64,000 nucleotides of DNA from Actinomycetota bacterium (GCA_013816245.1 JACDEU010000001.1:106744-170743); one strand, 5' to 3'. Positions 15,698-18,954 are shown, counted from the first letter of the stretch. Made by a program: numbers and translations. Notes: generated by a model from the letters alone, not told the origin.

Positions 15698-15804
15698 CCG
15701 CGGCAAATCCGGCCGCGCTCCGCGCGGCCATGATGATTTGCCGCGGATCGGGTTCTACCGGAGAGCCGCAGTGGCGAACGCCGGCCAAGTCGGCATTCGC
15801 GGCG
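15698..15804 (+). repeat. tRNA-trailing bipartite hairpin repeat, copy A1
   Basis: Outer stem CCGCGGCAAATC/GATTTGCCGCGG (12 bp). Inner hairpin GGCCGCGC-TCC-GCGCGGCC. Junction GCCATGATGA. Second hairpin GCGAACGCCGGC-CAA-GTCGGCATTCGC. Confidence 0.7.
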
Positions 15805-15809
15805 TGGAA

Positions 15810-15901
15810 CCGCGGAAAGTCCGCCGCGGCTTCGACGCGCCATGATGACTTCCCGCGGCCTCTACTTCTGCCGATAGCCGTTGCGGCGAACGCCGGCGAA
15901 G
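15810..15901 (+). repeat. tRNA-trailing bipartite hairpin repeat, copy A2 (tandem to A1)
   Basis: Outer stem CCGCGGAAAGTC/GACTTCCCGCGG (11/12 bp) and junction GCCATGATGA. The module 2 5' arm GCGAACGCCGGC is kept, but the 3' arm has decayed. Confidence 0.65.
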
Positions 15902-15952
15902 TGCTGCGAGCTGAAGCAGTTGGACGAGACCCCGCTATCCTGATGCGGGCAC

Positions 15953-16026
15953 GGTGGCTGTAGCTCAGTTGGTAGAGCCCCTGGTTGTGGTCCAGGTGGT
16001 CGTGGGTTCGAGTCCCATCAGCCACC
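15953..16026 (+). tRNA. tRNA-His (anticodon GTG)
   Basis: Encoded G-1 plus acceptor GTGGCTG/CAGCCAC and discriminator C. Anticodon arm CCTGG-TTGTGGT-CCAGG. T arm GTGGG-TTCGAGT-CCCAT. Confidence 0.92.
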
Positions 16027-16108
16027 TCAGCCGTCACCGCGAGGTCGGGCTTTGCCCGGCCTCGCTCGCTGCGGCTGACGGAATACCTCAGTGCCCAAAC
16101 GAGCCGCA

Positions 16109-16137
16109 CGAAGTCATACGCCGAAGGCGCGACTTCG
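16109..16137 (+). repeat. Degenerate relative of repeat module 1 (hairpin after tRNA-His)
   Basis: CGAAGTC-ATACGCCGAAGGCGC-GACTTCG. It has the same outer-arm sequence type as A3/A5 but lacks CCATGAT. Confidence 0.4.
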
Positions 16138-16145
16138 AGCGGCAG

Positions 16146-16176
16146 GGTCGTGGGTTCGAGTCCCATCAGCCACCTC
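16146..16176 (+). repeat. 31-bp direct duplicate of the tRNA-His 3' end
   Basis: GGTCGTGGGTTCGAGTCCCATCAGCCACCTC is identical to 15998-16028 (T arm, acceptor 3' strand and 2 nt of trailer). Confidence 0.85.
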
Positions 16177-16178
16177 CA

Positions 16179-16217
16179 CCGACGAAAGTCGCGCCTCCGG
16201 CGCCTGGCTTTCGTCGG
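16179..16217 (+). repeat. Degenerate relative of repeat module 1 (hairpin after the tRNA-His fragment)
   Basis: Outer stem CCGACGAAAG/CTTTCGTCGG (10 bp) enclosing GCGCC-TCC-GGCGC. Same nested architecture as A1. Confidence 0.45.
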
Positions 16218-16289
16218 TATCGCCGCTTCGTAGAGCGGTGTCGCGGCGATTGTCACGTACCTCCGTCGGGTCTTGCCCGTTGCGTAGGC

Positions 16290-16817
16290 GTGAGCTCCGA
16301 GGGCTTTCTCTTGCGTTTCTTCCTGGGTCTGACTGGGAGTCTGGCTGCCGTGTTCCTGGCGGTCGGCTGCACGGTTCACCAGCGGAGCACGGAAGGGAAC
16401 GTCCTGGGAGCCGGCGTGGAGAGTGGGTCCTGGGCTTCACCGGCAGAGCTCGCCTGGCTCGGGAAGCTCGGAGCCTGGGACACCCGGTTGTTGCGCGGGC
16501 TCCAGACAGCCGCGCGCGTCGAAACTACGCCGGGCCTCGCGAAGAAGCTGATGGAGCGTGACGGCAAGACGGTGGTCCTCCATTCACGCGCTCTCCAGCC
16601 GGCGAGCTCCTGCAACTCGGATCTGGCGACGAAGGTGGGGTCTGCGCCGACGGTTCGTCTTCAGCGCGCTTATGACACGTTCCGCCTCGCGTGTACGCAT
16701 CTGCAGCGGTTCCACAGCGCGATCACGCTCGCCGTGGATCAGCGTCAGAACTCGAAGATCGGCGCGGTCGTAAGCGGAGCCGGGCAAAGCCCGTCTCCGC
16801 GGCGGCGGTTACCCTGA
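16290..16817 (+). CDS. Putative lipoprotein, unknown function
   Basis: The track ORF 15954..16817 reads through tRNA-His. GTG 16290 (or TTG 16311) precedes a lipobox-like signal FLGLTGSLAAVFLAVGC. Confidence 0.55.
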   Translation: MSSEGFLLRFFLGLTGSLAAVFLAVGCTVHQRSTEGNVLGAGVESGSWASPAELAWLGKLGAWDTRLLRGLQTAARVETTPGLAKKLMERDGKTVVLHSRALQPASSCNSDLATKVGSAPTVRLQRAYDTFRLACTHLQRFHSAITLAVDQRQNSKIGAVVSGAGQSPSPRRRLP

Positions 16818-16823
16818 TTGCTC

Positions 16824-16895
16824 GGCCCCGTAGCTCAGCGGATAGAGCGACGGACTTCGAATCCGTGCGCGGAGGTTCGACTCCTCCCGGGGCCA
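16824..16895 (+). tRNA. tRNA-Arg (anticodon TCG)
   Basis: Manual cloverleaf: acceptor GGCCCCG/CGGGGCC, anticodon arm ACGGA-CTTCGAA-TCCGT, T arm GGAGG-TTCGACT-CCTCC. Confidence 0.92.
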
Positions 16896-17138: not shown

Positions 17139-17190
17139 GACTTCGAACGGCTTCTCGTTTCGATCGGTGCGCCGCCGGCGAAAGCCGGCC
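17139..17190 (+). repeat. Partial repeat copy A4 (right arm plus module 2 only)
   Basis: GACTTCGAACGGCTTCTCGTTTCGAT.. aligns with A3 16957-16985. It ends in GCCGGC-GAAA-GCCGGC. Confidence 0.55.
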
Positions 17191-17216
17191 AGCTCACGAC
17201 CTATCCTCTGCTCCGG

Positions 17217-17516
17217 ATGCGGAGAGTCGGCCTCGGGGCTACCGGACTCCTGATCGCCGTGGTAACGGTGATCGTCGCCGTTGGCATGATCGATGGCGCA
17301 AACCCCCAGTTTTCACGCGGCCGCTCGCCGACATGGTCGGTAGTCGTTCAGGAGACTCTCGGCATCGTCACGCTTGCGGCGCTTGGCAGCACTGCCGTCG
17401 CGCTCGTGGCGCTTGCGCGCCGTCGCCGGGCACGACGGTTTTTCATTTTCTTACCCCTAAGCCTTGCTCTGGCCTTCGGTTGGTGGGTCGCGTTGTTTGT
17501 TGAGCGCGTGAGCTGA
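17217..17516 (+). CDS. Small membrane protein (3 predicted TM), unknown function
   Basis: ATG 17217 within track ORF 17055..17516: MRRVGLGATGLLIAVVTVIVAVGM...FFIFLPLSLALAFGWWVALFV. The upstream part of that ORF covers repeat A4. Confidence 0.5.
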   Translation: MRRVGLGATGLLIAVVTVIVAVGMIDGANPQFSRGRSPTWSVVVQETLGIVTLAALGSTAVALVALARRRRARRFFIFLPLSLALAFGWWVALFVERVS

Positions 17517-17531
17517 TCAGTGCCCGGCTGA

Positions 17532-17909
17532 CTACTGCCGTTTGCGTGACCCGTCGCACACCGTCGTCCGCAAGACCTTCCGGGCTGAGCCCCGCGCGAA
17601 GATTCTCCAACGCTCACCGCGCATGGCAGTGATGCTGACCGAGGTGATGCTGCCGGTTCCGTCTGCGCGGTGGATGTTGCCGGTGTTGACCCGAACGATC
17701 CGTGGCCCATGCCCTTTCAGGAAGCGCGTCACGCGGAAGCGTTGGATCCCGGTGGCGGTTAGGCCCTCGAGGGCGACGCCGTCGAAGATGACGTCGGCCC
17801 GGGCACGTTGTTCGGCAGCCGTCATCGGAATACACGAGGCGGTAGCCGTTGAAGCCAGGATGGCCAGGGCTGCGACCCCGACAACTGAGATTGAGATGAG
17901 TTTCGACAT
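17532..17909 (-). CDS. Small secreted protein, unknown function
   Basis: ATG 17909 within track ORF 17532..18080. Signal peptide MSKLISISVVGVAALAILASTATASC. The mature Cys followed by ADVIFDGVALEG is faintly reminiscent of NTR/TIMP-like folds; this is a weak resemblance. Confidence 0.5.
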   Translation of the reverse strand: MSKLISISVVGVAALAILASTATASCIPMTAAEQRARADVIFDGVALEGLTATGIQRFRVTRFLKGHGPRIVRVNTGNIHRADGTGSITSVSITAMRGERWRIFARGSARKVLRTTVCDGSRKRQ

Positions 17910-18105
17910 GCCCTCTATACGGCGCCGACCGCGCTCTTCGTCACGCGAGGTCACACGGAACGGGGACGACCGCCGCGGCGCAGAAATCAATGCTCCGCGA
18001 CGGACGAGCCCCACACCAATCGCGACTCGTCCCAGTGAGGGAACGGCGACGTTGCAATGCGGATCCCAGCGCGAGGTCAAGGCGGGAGGACATCATCTCA
18101 CATAG

Positions 18106-18133
18106 TTGCGAAGATCACAAAGTGGGCTATGCT
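18106..18133 (+). promoter_or_regulatory. Candidate promoter for the ANTAR gene
   Basis: TTGCGA, 16-nt spacer, TATGCT. Lies about 95 nt upstream of GTG 18229. Confidence 0.3.
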
Positions 18134-18228
18134 GTGCCCATTCGCGCCCGGTCGTGACCCCGTTCCCCTTCGGGCCCCAGAGCGGTTGCCTCTCGGCGCA
18201 CATCTCGCAAACGGCGAAGGGTTGGGCC

Positions 18229-18540
18229 GTGAAGGACCTGCTCGACAGGCTCGACGGTCATCCGTTGTCTGCGGAGATCTCCGCAGAGATCAGCCGGCTG
18301 ACCGTCTACGCAGATGCTCAGGAGTCAAAGGTGCGGCAGCTCCAAACCGCTCTCGACTCGCGCGTCGCGATCGAGCGTGCCAACGGAATCCTCGCCGAAC
18401 GCTTCCAGGTGGCCGTCGAGGAGGCCTTCGACTTGCTCCGTAAGGCCGCGCGCTCGAGTCGGCGGGAGCTGACACCGCTTGCGGAGGAGGTCATAAGCTC
18501 GAGCCAGACGCCCACAGAGATTGCCGCGGCGCTGCCGTGA
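18229..18540 (+). CDS. ANTAR domain protein without a sensor domain
   Basis: RVAIERANGILAERFQVAVEEAFDLLRKAARSSRRELTPLAEEV is a clear ANTAR signature. Only a short coiled-coil-like segment precedes it. GTG 18229 is the preferred start within track ORF 18106..18540. Confidence 0.75.
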   Translation: MKDLLDRLDGHPLSAEISAEISRLTVYADAQESKVRQLQTALDSRVAIERANGILAERFQVAVEEAFDLLRKAARSSRRELTPLAEEVISSSQTPTEIAAALP

Positions 18541-18557
18541 CCAGCACGTAGCGAGAC

Positions 18558-18740
18558 TCAGTCGACGGGAGCGGTGCGTCGGCACCGCGGGCAGACCCAT
18601 TCCGTCACAGGCTCTCCGCGCGATCCGCTCCGGCCAGGGTGGGCCTGCTGCCCCGCCCAACGTGTGCGAATTCGCATCGGCCCGTGACCACGGGGGCACT
18701 CCTTGGCTTGCGCTTCTTTTTCTTCCGGTTTTTCAGGCAT
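18558..18740 (-). CDS. Possible 60-aa zinc-ribbon protein
   Basis: CPRGH...WVCPRC arrangement. The ORF start is only 22 nt from tRNA-Leu, and coding status is unproven. Confidence 0.3.
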   Translation of the reverse strand: MPEKPEEKEAQAKECPRGHGPMRIRTRWAGQQAHPGRSGSRGEPVTEWVCPRCRRTAPVD

Positions 18741-18762
18741 CGAGAGTTAGTCTGGAGCTCGC

Positions 18763-18847
18763 GCGGGCGTGGCGGAATTGGTAGACGCGCCGGGTTTAGG
18801 TCCCGGTGGAGCTTTGCTCCTTAGAGGTTCAAGTCCTCTCGCCCGCA
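18763..18847 (+). tRNA. tRNA-Leu (anticodon TAG)
   Basis: Class II tRNA: acceptor GCGGGCG/CGCCCGC, anticodon arm CCGGG-TTTAGGT-CCCGG, long variable arm, T loop TTCAAGT. Confidence 0.9.
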
Positions 18848-18852
18848 TCGTC

Positions 18853-18954
18853 GTTCGAAGTCCGGCTTGCTTCGCGAGCCATGATGACTTCGAACGCCAT
18901 TGTCCTAACGGAGAGCCGCAGCGGCGAACGCCGGCTGAGCCGGCATTCGCGGCG
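18853..18954 (+). repeat. tRNA-trailing bipartite hairpin repeat, copy A5
   Basis: Outer stem GTTCGAAGTC/GACTTCGAAC (10 bp). Inner hairpin GGCTTGC-TTC-GCGAGCC. Junction GCCATGATGA. Second hairpin GCGAACGCCGGC-TGA-GCCGGCATTCGC. It abuts the stop of the convergent gene at 18956. Confidence 0.7.

Follow-up and report, generated by a model that had tools for sequence, protein, structure and literature searches.

A lineage-specific family of two-hairpin repeats found behind tRNA and other genes of Gaiellales

The window that we analysed, a stretch of 64,000 nucleotides from an Actinomycetota bacterium, carries several copies of a repeat of about 107 nt made of two unlike hairpins, named hereafter module 1 and module 2. 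Seven tRNA genes lie in the window, and three of them (Pro, Gly-TCC and Ala) are devoid of it. The features of the region are as follows.

15622-15695, plus strand: tRNA-Arg(TCT) (ARAGORN; Rfam tRNA match at 15622-15694)
15697-15804, plus strand: copy A1, full element (cmsearch, fold, repeat families D1 and D8)
15809-15908, plus strand: copy A2, in tandem with A1 (cmsearch 47 bits; fold z -0.8)
15953-16028, plus strand: tRNA-His(GTG) (tRNA and Rfam searches)
16035-16143, minus strand: degenerate inverted copy (cmsearch 32.5 bits, E 5e-5)
16146-16181, plus strand: second copy of the 3' part of tRNA-His (repeat family D12; 94% identical to 15998-16033 over 36 nt)
about 16178-16248, plus strand: copy of the tRNA-His subfamily (orthologues L079 and L017; empty site L098; fold)
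16773-16808, plus strand: lone module-2-like hairpin (cmsearch on 16724-16804, 23 bits, E 0.004; inverted repeat I1)
16824-16895, plus strand: tRNA-Arg(TCG) (ARAGORN; Rfam)
16903-17026, plus strand: copy A3 (cmsearch 103 bits; repeat families D5 and D14)
17132-17194, plus strand: A4, 5'-truncated remnant (alignment to the 3' part of A3; cmsearch 7.4 bits, E 5.7)
18763-18847, plus strand: tRNA-Leu(TAG) (ARAGORN; Rfam)
18850-18954, plus strand: copy A5, full element (cmsearch 97 bits; fold z -3.9)
18956-19543, minus strand: convergent gene, confirmed in the source contig, whose stop codon lies 2 nt past A5

In module 1, the stem P1 has 12 bp, the inner half of which (GAARUC/GAYUUC) is conserved; between its two arms lie a bulged C, then P2, which is a GC hairpin, and then AUGAU as a bulge of 5 nt. 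Module 2, a hairpin of consensus GCCGA-C-GCCGGC-AAA-GCCGGC-A-UCGGC, comes after a pyrimidine/U-rich linker and precedes a GGCG tail. The full copies A1, A3 and A5 score 96-103 bits with the covariance model (E about 1e-17 to 1e-19). A1 (96 bits) follows tRNA-Arg(TCT), a gene that does not encode CCA and whose mature 3' end, with A as discriminator, is probably 15694; it folds at -67.1 kcal/mol (z -4.7 against shuffles), with 15698-15709 paired to 15735-15746 as P1, a bulged C at 15710, P2 at 15711-15729, AUGAU at 15730-15734, the module 2 hairpin at 15774-15800 and the tail at 15801-15804. The same parts are found in A5 (-54.3 kcal/mol, z -3.9): P1 pairs 18853-18862 with 18886-18895, the bulged C is 18863, and P2 (18864-18880), AUGAU (18881-18885), module 2 (18924-18950) and the tail (18951-18954) follow. 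A3 (-60.6 kcal/mol, z -3.0) opens with a duplicated 5' arm including half of P2 (16903-16920), and the full element, to which the 103 bits belong, spans 16921-17026. The outer stems listed in the original prediction are complementary as stated, and its hand alignment of A1 with A5 (44 of 49 positions over module 2) agrees with the 89% identity over 53 nt given by the direct-repeat search, which also aligned A3 with A5 (90% over 49 nt) and A1 with A2 (73% over 49 nt). The core CCATGATGACTTC, allowing at most two mismatches, has five occurrences in the window where 0.79 would be expected, and four of them are inside the region.

Some of the other copies need correction. A2 is indeed a tandem copy with an intact module 1, but its module 2 hairpin has decayed to non-pairs in the covariance-model alignment and its fold is no better than shuffles. 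A4, listed in the prediction as the 3' part of a copy, comprises the 3' arm of P1, the linker and a module-2-like hairpin and is recognisable through alignment to A3 only; support for it is weak because of its low covariance-model score. The stretch 16109-16137, taken as a degenerate plus-strand relative, is part of the inverted copy at 16035-16143, which has P1, a P2 that is short, a module-2-like hairpin, and AUGA where other copies have AUGAUGA; the statement that all copies lie on the plus strand is therefore wrong. The hairpin of this inverted copy also trails tRNA-His at two other loci. The second presumed relative, at 16179-16217, does belong to the family but extends over about 16178-16248 as a member of a tRNA-His subfamily, with a hairpin in the linker, a GCGGCG tail and a variant of module 1 that lacks AUGAU; since its orthologues in L079 and L017 are full copies, its module 2 hairpin has been deleted (fold of 16175-16260: -44.9 kcal/mol, z -4.4). 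The duplicated 3' part of tRNA-His beside it is attR-like, a -10-like TATCCT stands 8 nt upstream of the 5' end of tRNA-His(GTG), and the lone hairpin at 16773-16808 precedes tRNA-Arg(TCG) by 15 nt.

Searches beyond the window confirmed that the two-hairpin repeat family is real. The covariance model, which recovers A1, A3 and A5 as full copies, finds it in dozens of MAGs of Gaiellaceae/Gaiellales and in soil metagenome contigs, and no copies were matched in plasmids, phages or viral contigs; the element is lineage-specific. As anticipated, it is not a named RNA family: no family of Rfam 15 matches it, even at E values up to 10, and it is new to that catalogue. The compensatory stem changes seen at first in a handful of copies recur in two sets, which may have organisms in common: 95.1% of cells are paired in the genome set against 81.1% after shuffling (double changes, 349 versus 99) and 96.5% against 77.8% in the metagenome set (456 versus 126), where 20 of the 26 pairs show compensatory change, while slid controls reach at most 46.5% in both. 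Several unpaired bases, namely the bulged C, AUGAU (lacking in the tRNA-His subfamily), a C.A mismatch and the loop A, are invariant across genomes. Judging from these alignments, the fold is kept by selection.

Of 232 model matches, 117 begin 0-25 nt (mostly 1-4) 3' of a same-strand tRNA, covering 22 anticodons, and none has an opposite-strand tRNA upstream. The proposed co-orientation with tRNAs thus holds, but about half of the copies lie away from tRNAs, and the element is therefore not tRNA-only. These other matches follow the SRP RNA (whose end is the start of one copy), same-strand stop codons (from -9 to +42 nt, e.g., secA and a T2SS-F gene) or tRNA fragments, or are intergenic; one location is between whiA and gap. 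Conserved copies are also found upstream of tRNA-Lys(CTT) and tRNA-Met, beside divergently transcribed genes, and one or more copies lie 5' of a whole tRNA array. Convergent back-to-back pairs, one copy per convergent gene, occur at three loci, which indicates that orientation is set by the upstream gene and not by replication. The downstream neighbour is convergent in less than half of cases, and none of the neighbouring genes recurs conspicuously. Copies in supernumerary tRNA arrays start 3-4 nt after the upstream tRNA, and the next tRNA begins 2-20 nt after them; for tRNA arrays this gap is also given as 2-26 nt. Within such arrays, the element would therefore be transcribed as part of the precursor, and efficient termination by it is ruled out, so that a role as dedicated tRNA terminator, as first suggested, fails there. 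Longer gaps of 40-57 nt before the next tRNA contain -10-like hexamers.

We tentatively favour the view that the element is a co-transcribed 3'-trailer or spacer module, combining a leaky hairpin terminator with an exonuclease block and cut off the tRNA by RNase Z; in short, it most likely shapes transcript ends. We infer sense transcription together with the gene upstream; the element would serve as 3' trailer of single tRNA genes, as spacer in tRNA arrays and as 3' end of the SRP RNA and some mRNAs. The U content of the first 10 nt after P1 is 0.37 against a background of 0.166, A being depleted there, and the P1/P2 hairpin followed by this U-enriched tract might cause RNA polymerase to pause and in part to terminate. 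In agreement with a terminator-like role, the longer gaps hold -10-like hexamers, and canonical terminators (hairpin plus T-run) are not enriched in the genome (10 versus 9.9 expected). Within arrays, termination could be no more than partial, since the tRNAs further on would be silenced if it were efficient. Module 2 may act as a terminal stem that blocks 3'-to-5' exonucleases. None of the tRNA genes here encodes CCA, and pyrimidines occupy +1/+2 after the discriminator; CCA-less tRNA genes with pyrimidines at these positions fit RNase Z processing. RNase Z would accordingly free the CCA-less tRNA 2-5 nt before P1, and in arrays RNase P would cut at the next tRNA. The expected outcome is that neighbouring transcription units are insulated and their ends defined, a stable by-product RNA being left. 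Several observations fit this scheme poorly: the invariant unpaired bases exceed the needs of a generic terminator, copies upstream of tRNA-Lys(CTT) and tRNA-Met have no same-strand gene to terminate, no true U-run lies 3' of either hairpin, and G.U pairs are rare on the plus strand, whose reverse complement folds better.

Both a processing platform and a released structured RNA had been raised at the outset and are possible readings. According to the latter, which we hold to be rather unlikely, the element is itself a gene product excised from tRNA precursors by RNase Z at its 5' end and by RNase P or RNase Z at its 3' end; the tRNA promoter would be a mere expression vehicle for a very stable and abundant RNA, which would bind a protein or another RNA through its invariant bulges and loops (as scaffold, sponge or tRNA-minihelix mimic). 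Array copies are so closely flanked by tRNAs that precise excision would follow, and the fold is predicted to be very stable (-54 to -67 kcal/mol). P1, with 12 bp, has the length of an acceptor/T-arm stack and is followed by N-Y-Y, the signature also seen after tRNA acceptor stems here; the conservation of unpaired bases and the copies placed 5' of tRNA-Lys, tRNA-Met or a whole array would suit a gene product as well, and there is a precedent in the cleavage of dicistronic tRNA-C/D sRNA precursors by RNase Z (PMC3491384). Against this, copies right after the stop codons of protein genes would not be released by tRNA enzymes, the -10-like boxes in the longer gaps suggest separate transcription units, one subfamily dispenses with AUGAU, near-absence of G.U pairs is unusual for a functional RNA, and neither a partner nor a recurrent neighbouring gene was identified.

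The strand asymmetry raises the question of whether the functional structure is instead a DNA hairpin or cruciform, or a transcript of the opposite strand, which we consider improbable. The plus-strand helices are strictly Watson-Crick, with no excess of G.U, which is as rare as A.C, while the reverse complement is the more stable in 150 of 178 copies folded as RNA and 169 of 177 folded as DNA, a puzzling combination. Read from the minus strand, the mismatch C.A, conserved in 104/117, is a wobble pair (U.G or T.G), and C(UNC)G, the loop of P2 in 127/157, is a C(GNA)G triloop; C(GNA)G is a hyperstable DNA mini-hairpin loop. Such a structure could be a barrier to convergent transcription entering highly expressed genes or, alternatively, a topoisomerase or nucleoid-protein site behind heavily transcribed ones, and the genes served are highly expressed (tRNAs, SRP RNA, secA, the region ahead of gap and rpmG), with a convergent stop codon just past A5. 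On the other hand, the R-N-A loop of module 2 and the U-rich tract after P1 are features of the plus strand, a DNA site needs neither a fixed orientation nor a start 1-4 nt past the tRNA, a convergent neighbour is the minority situation, and array copies lie between co-oriented tRNAs.

The idea that the element is palindromic DNA of the REP/REPIN or MITE type, selfish or domesticated, strikes us as similarly unlikely. It would have spread by strand-specific ssDNA transposition (RAYT or IS200/IS605-like) or recombination and would be tolerated beside tRNAs since trailers get trimmed. At least 12 strict-pattern copies exist in one MAG, tandem copies occur in the window (A1-A2) and at three other loci, the 5'-arm duplication of A3 recurs at four other loci, window copies are mosaic (module 1 of A3 resembles that of A5, module 2 of A1 that of A5), orthologous sites, like related arrays, differ in whether they carry the element, and strict Watson-Crick helices with one conserved mismatch recall hairpins recognised as ssDNA. 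Yet copies of one genome differ by 0.31 on average (minimum 0.077, a single pair), and 94 of 100 have their nearest relative in a different genome; orthologous copies are 62-83% identical, compared with 29-50% for the next 100 nt, and stems vary from locus to locus but are kept across genomes at the same locus. This excludes a recently active MITE and makes the suggested MITE targeting tRNA flanks unlikely as a current activity. Orientation is moreover fixed to the upstream gene, convergent pairs included, comparison of filled and empty sites gave only an ambiguous TC..TC and no clear target-site duplication, no orphan modules 1 or 2 flanking an ORF were found, transposases and integrases are missing from the 20 commonest neighbouring gene families, and viral contigs, phages and plasmids lack copies.

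Among known systems, the REP/BIME/REPIN sequences of proteobacteria, linked to RAYT, are likewise GC-rich imperfect palindromes, extragenic, multi-copy, sometimes in tandem and mostly at gene 3' ends; they are transcribed with the upstream gene and can stabilise upstream RNA or attenuate read-through, as the element might. They differ from it in that the element has two unlike hairpins over about 107 nt, stems varying by compensatory change, copies about 31% divergent within a genome, a fixed orientation and, for half of the copies, a start 1-4 nt past a tRNA, and no RAYT was found with it. The attC sites of integrons and the end hairpins of IS200/IS605, which are recognised for recombination as folded ssDNA, also keep structure with variable stem sequence and conserved mismatches or extrahelical bases, and stand in fixed orientation behind genes, repeated in arrays; the element, in contrast, has no R'/R'' core sites (GTTRRRY) and no integrase or transposase nearby, and the majority of its copies occupy conserved single-gene loci in dispersed parts of the chromosome. 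The RNase III processing hairpins of phage T7 share a coaxial helix of about 20 bp with a conserved asymmetric internal loop between polycistronic cistrons, but this is no more than a resemblance, and the loop sequence is unrelated. An archaeal 18-nt palindrome, also lineage-specific and conserved, lies just after about half of tRNA genes and was proposed as a 3'-maturation signal; it is simple, whereas the element is a bacterial 107-nt, two-hairpin structure that also follows non-tRNA genes. Dicistronic tRNA-small-RNA precursors, i.e., plant tRNA-snoRNA genes and the tRNA-C/D sRNAs of Nanoarchaeum cut by RNase Z (PMC3491384), place a structured RNA directly 3' of a tRNA, where RNase Z would make its 5' end, and AUGAUGA of the element matches the C-box consensus RUGAUGA. 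However, the element lacks a D box, the C/D protein set is missing from bacteria, the snoRNA and sRNA models of Rfam give no match, and a G.A tandem is impossible because covariation shows GAYUUC to be Watson-Crick paired. Finally, actinobacterial intrinsic terminators with weak or absent U-tracts also place a strong GC hairpin right after the gene, to which the U enrichment after P1 may be compared; the element differs from them in that it forms a family of conserved sequence, has a second hairpin and invariant bulges, and is present also inside polycistronic tRNA arrays and upstream of some tRNAs.

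The window holds seven tRNA genes, and related sequences of about 105 nt lie directly 3' of three of them, those for Arg(TCT), Arg(TCG) and Leu(TAG). The original prediction that these form a repeat family proves sound on several counts. A repeat search gave 89% identity between copies A1 and A5 over 53 nt, 90% between A3 and A5 over 49 nt and 73% between A1 and A2 over 49 nt, and the core CCATGATGACTTC, with up to two mismatches, has five occurrences across the 64 kb where 0.79 would be expected, four of the five being inside the region. A1, A3 and A5 fold far better than shuffled sequence (z of -4.7, -3.0 and -3.9), A2 does not, and the covariance model built from element copies scores A3 at 103 bits, A5 at 97, A1 at 96 and A2 at 47.

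Element copies in the window
15697-15804, plus strand, A1, full copy after tRNA-Arg(TCT)
15809-15908, plus strand, A2, after A1
16035-16143, minus strand, decayed copy, 32.5 bits
about 16178-16248, plus strand, copy of the tRNA-His subfamily
16903-17026, plus strand, A3, full copy after tRNA-Arg(TCG)
17132-17194, plus strand, A4
18850-18954, plus strand, A5, full copy after tRNA-Leu(TAG)

The copy list itself had to be amended: A1, A3 and A5 reach full scores and A4 just 7 bits; the segment 16109-16137, read as a plus-strand relative, belongs to the decayed minus-strand copy; and the relative at 16179-16217 belongs to the tRNA-His subfamily copy, one that has lost its second hairpin. The hairpin of the decayed minus-strand copy also stands behind tRNA-His at two loci from other genomes (L018 and L022). 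The tRNA-Pro, tRNA-Gly(TCC) and tRNA-Ala genes of the window carry no copy. The last 36 nt of tRNA-His are duplicated (15998-16033 and 16146-16181, 94% identity) and enclose only about 112 nt, namely the inverted decayed copy; the arrangement looks like the attL/attR scar of an integration whose interior was lost. Directly after tRNA-Gly(TCC), at 12690-12760, lies an AT-rich stretch with a promoter-like TTGAGA-16-TATGTT, and a similar sequence follows the same tRNA at locus L017. The whole stretch from tRNA-Arg(TCG) to tRNA-Leu is rearranged between genomes; an ANTAR-domain gene (PF03861) at about 18154-18540 is missing from the orthologous interval of L018. The window was traced to a metagenome contig, JAITZQ013667725.1, whose gene calls supply the PF03861 assignment.

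Alignments of 82-88 copies define the consensus. P1 is a 12-bp stem whose outer half varies and whose inner half, GAARUC/GAYUUC, is conserved, its R and Y covarying; a single C is bulged; P2 is a GC hairpin of 6-9 bp with a loop that is usually C(UNC)G; and the 3' side bears AUGAU as a 5-nt bulge. A linker some 28 nt long, pyrimidine- and U-rich at its start and devoid of any structure found alignment-wide, leads to the second hairpin, GCCGA-C-GCCGGC-(R-N-A)-GCCGGC-A-UCGGC, with a conserved C.A mismatch, and a GGCG tail closes the element. An extra 2-bp helix flanking module 2 was dropped, being paired in only 67%. The 5' arm and first half of P2 (14-30 nt) are repeatedly duplicated just 5' of a full copy, as in A3 (16903-16920) and at four loci elsewhere (L013 4740-4770; L038; L062 741-770 and 925-950; L071), and may be what is left of tandem copies that underwent an internal deletion.

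Selection acts on the fold. Paired cells amount to 95.1% in the genome set (81.1% in shuffles, 19-45% in slid controls) and 96.5% in the metagenome set (77.8% and 20-47%), with 349 double changes against 99 in shuffles and 456 against 126, respectively, in two sets that may share organisms. In 500 shuffles neither the pairing nor the covariation score of the real alignments was attained, and slid controls peaked at 46.5%. Compensatory changes, noted by eye in the stems of the window copies, were thus recovered above both controls in both sets; in the metagenome set they affect 20 of 26 pairs. All four Watson-Crick pairs are used at several positions of P1. Between genomes, orthologous copies behind the same tRNA share 62-83% identity, compared with 29-50% over the next 100 nt.

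Scanning one genome per species with a two-module pattern returned 98 stretches, 85 of them genuine, and one MAG has at least 12 copies. The carriers are nearly all MAGs labelled Gaiellaceae, Gaiellales or "Actinomycetes/Actinomycetota"; with the one strict pattern used, no cultured Gaiellaceae appeared among them. In soil metagenome contigs a module-1-only pattern matched at least 120 stretches, and most of the matches listed also have module 2. Viral contigs and phage and plasmid records yielded no copy. The element is a family spread through one lineage. One contig labelled Tepidiformaceae (Chloroflexota; L098, DATNET010000307.1) carries a Gaiellaceae tRNA-Arg(TCT)/His cluster with the element and, for that reason, is probably mis-binned. 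Against Rfam 15, only tRNAs of the whole window pass the gathering score, and with the limit relaxed to E 10 only chance sub-gathering matches overlap the copies in 15500-19100; a literature search did not find a description of the family.

Genomic positions were counted over 232 model hits (E up to 0.001). The picture drawn from the window, that of a repeat trailing tRNA genes, holds for 117 hits, which begin 0-25 nt (mostly 1-4) 3' of a same-strand tRNA and span 22 anticodons; the others follow SRP RNA, stop codons or tRNA fragments, or lie between genes. Co-orientation with the upstream tRNA extends to all 117, and no hit starts after an opposite-strand tRNA. In the sampled loci, counts that are affected by ascertainment bias, the element always accompanies tRNA-Arg-TCT (9/9), Leu-TAG (9/9), Lys-CTT (8/8) and Phe (6/6), never Gly-TCC (0/5) or Met (0/4), and varies at Arg-TCG (3/10) and His (3/9). 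Elsewhere, one copy sits at the end of the SRP RNA, others lie -9 to +42 nt from the stop codon of a same-strand gene (e.g., secA or a T2SS-F gene), one lies between whiA and gap, 25 nt 5' of the gap start codon, and still others precede tRNA-Lys(CTT) and tRNA-Met, next to genes that are transcribed divergently. Convergent genes may each have a copy, back to back (L048, L004, L026), which indicates that orientation tracks the upstream gene, not replication; inverted pairs are confined to the 3' sides of convergent genes. Conserved boxes, GTCTGTGGTTGACT and GTCTGTGATTACGAC, stand just 3' of several copies (L008, L015, L034 (about 15-30 nt), L082, L091 and L014) and may serve the next gene as promoters or operator sites. 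Where islands have integrated into tRNA genes, copies also follow the displaced tRNA 3' fragment at the distal end; the order of intact tRNA, insert, tRNA 3' fragment and element there implies that the element shows where the original downstream flank (attR) lies.

Islands of about 2-5.5 kb inserted in tRNA-Arg(CCG) and tRNA-Lys(TTT)
2879-5159, locus L069
493-4693, locus L089
647-6275, locus L023

A further context is that of supernumerary tRNA arrays with 13 or more tRNAs in 1.5 kb, whose isodecoders differ from the housekeeping tRNAs.

tRNA arrays with the element
2594-4222, contig L137
27-1520, contig L136
contig L177
7338-7772, contig L011 (Gaiellaceae MAG), start of the same array

On L137, 13 tRNAs are packed into 1.5 kb with the element as intercistronic spacer: element, 9 nt, tRNA-Ile, 3 nt, element, 20 nt, tRNA-Phe, 2 nt, element, 20 nt, tRNA-Lys and, later, tRNA-Asp, 3 nt, element, 2 nt, tRNA-His. 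Related arrays differ in the positions of the element (Asn-element-Glu vs Asn-Glu; Phe-element-Lys vs Phe-Lys). As such spacing leaves no room for promoters, the element would be transcribed inside a polycistronic precursor, and it is from array spacing alone that we infer its transcription; long tRNA arrays are transcribed as operons in other bacteria (PMC8421152). The same spacing argues that the element is not an efficient terminator there, and the idea of a dedicated tRNA terminator gives way in the arrays, where the next tRNA, presumably co-transcribed, begins 2-26 nt downstream. Where the next tRNA is 40-57 nt away, a -10-like hexamer lies in between, and the element would then separate two transcription units. 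These hexamers stand about 7-13 nt 5' of the starts of tRNA-His, tRNA-Lys and tRNA-Met, a spacing that points to very short leaders, with the promoters coming straight after the element.

Hexamers resembling -10 boxes
15940-15945 of the window, TATCCT
7672-7677 of L056, TACACT
2692-2697 of L004, minus strand, TAAAAT

The simplest model fitting most contexts is that of a co-transcribed trailer or spacer module, a tentative reading in which our confidence stays just short of even. The bases 3' of the discriminator are pyrimidines and the tRNAs are CCA-less, and RNase Z would free the tRNA just upstream of the element. A strong hairpin followed by a U-enriched tract might cause pausing and partial termination, the second terminal hairpin might protect from exonucleases, and the whole might insulate the unit from the next promoter. 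Like an intrinsic terminator, the element offers a GC-rich hairpin at the end of transcription units, judging from its folds and its positions after tRNAs, SRP RNA and stop codons; in arrays, however, a presumably co-transcribed gene follows immediately. The tract after P1 has a U frequency of 0.37 against a background of 0.166 and no U run, a consensus terminator scan found none at the element copies, and canonical terminators are not enriched in the genome.

Several observations do not fit a trailer or spacer. The invariant bulges point to a specific partner, for some conserved copies there is no same-strand unit upstream that could be terminated, and the helices are strictly Watson-Crick. 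Counts of G.U versus A.C in the helices were 17 vs 23 and, in a second count, 10 vs 33, the excess lying mostly at one pair beside the conserved mismatch, so that the tolerance of plus-strand G.U above A.C expected of a transcribed structured RNA is not observed. The minus-strand signal of this test was set aside as mostly one shifted mismatch column; a plus-strand preference was not seen either. As RNA, 150 of 178 copies fold better in the reverse complement; as DNA, 169 of 177 do. On account of the bulges, contexts, Watson-Crick helices and reverse-complement folding, three rivals to the trailer or spacer module were kept.

The first is a released RNA with its own partner, an unlikely but not negligible explanation. 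In its fullest form, to which we give a smaller chance still, the element would be a bacterial counterpart of tRNA-linked small RNAs: an abundant RNA of about 60-130 nt would be cut from tRNA precursors by RNase Z and RNase P, the 12-bp P1 followed by N-Y-Y would mimic a tRNA acceptor/T-arm minihelix, and the invariant bulges would bind a dedicated, putative Gaiellaceae protein. Clustering of neighbouring genes for a partner or a transposase returned housekeeping families only. A function at the level of DNA or of the antisense strand, on which a wobble replaces the C.A mismatch and the P2 loop reads C(GNA)G, is improbable to a similar degree; the plus strand is favoured by the module 2 loop (R-N-A) and the U-rich tract.

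Equally doubtful is a REP-like element, now largely immobile. Traces of past turnover (tandem copies, recurrent 5'-arm duplications and mosaic window copies) speak for a mobile origin, as does presence or absence at orthologous sites, where L079 is filled and L098 empty with an indel bounded by TC..TC; at tRNA-Arg(TCG) the filled/empty comparison gave no clean result, the locus being rearranged. However, copies within a genome differ by 31% on average, the nearest relative of 94 of 100 copies is in another genome, stems are locus-specific yet conserved across genomes, no orphan copies of either module bracket an ORF as a sign of an autonomous IS, and housekeeping genes make up the 20 gene families most often found next to copies, none of which is a transposase or integrase. 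Judged from these sequences, the element is not a currently active mobile element. A REP/REPIN mobilised by RAYT was rejected, as copies in a genome do not cluster around a near-identical master sequence (mean within-genome distance 0.31) and placement is not in both orientations (117/117 tRNA-adjacent copies co-oriented). Those 20 families include no transposase such as RAYT (Y1 HUH). The earlier proposal of a MITE targeting tRNA flanks also fails, for want of terminal repeats, a clear target-site duplication and near-identical copies: the inverted repeat P1 encloses module 1 only, TC..TC (L079 vs L098) is ambiguous, and the copies are divergent.

Other known classes were dismissed: a kink-turn or box C/D, since AUGAUGA faces GAARUC-C-GG without GA and R/Y covariation is Watson-Crick (the sole snoRNA match in Rfam, sR17, has 14 bits vs a threshold of 36); a hammerhead, the order being GAA-hairpin-UGAUGA without a third helix, vs CUGANGA-helix II-GAA-helix III-cleavage site (no ribozyme model matches a copy; drz-agam-1 at 16014-16061, minus strand, has 16 bits vs 37); an integron attC, with no GTTRRRY in the consensus, no neighbouring integrase and most copies at single conserved loci; a Y RNA, whose bulged C after GUC is a mere resemblance without Rfam support; and domain V of group II introns, of the wrong geometry. 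Complementarity of the 5' arm with the anticodon arm of the upstream tRNA does not hold at other loci.

Bacterial sequence families linked to the 3' side of tRNA genes are very scarce, and Rfam lists none; this one is present in about 10 or more copies per genome in a soil lineage that is abundant yet little studied. Should it form or protect 3' ends, it would illustrate how transcription of the most active genes is brought to an end in a high-GC lineage that lacks canonical U-tract terminators; should it be a released RNA or a folded-DNA site, it would point to a partner protein; and if the small-RNA view were true, tRNA genes and arrays would double as expression cassettes for a second RNA class. 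In Gaiellaceae MAGs, the covariance model serves as a marker for tRNA trailers, for array boundaries and for the attR sites of islands integrated into tRNA genes. The element is a lineage-specific structured intergenic element with an unusual link to tRNA 3' ends and arrays. In its working it would probably be closest to 3' elements of the REP or terminator type, and there is a resemblance to dicistronic tRNA-small-RNA genes (PMC3491384). The nearest precedent in the literature for a palindrome 3' of tRNAs, although unrelated, is the conserved 18-nt palindrome found just after tRNA genes in Methanopyrus (PMC5217627).
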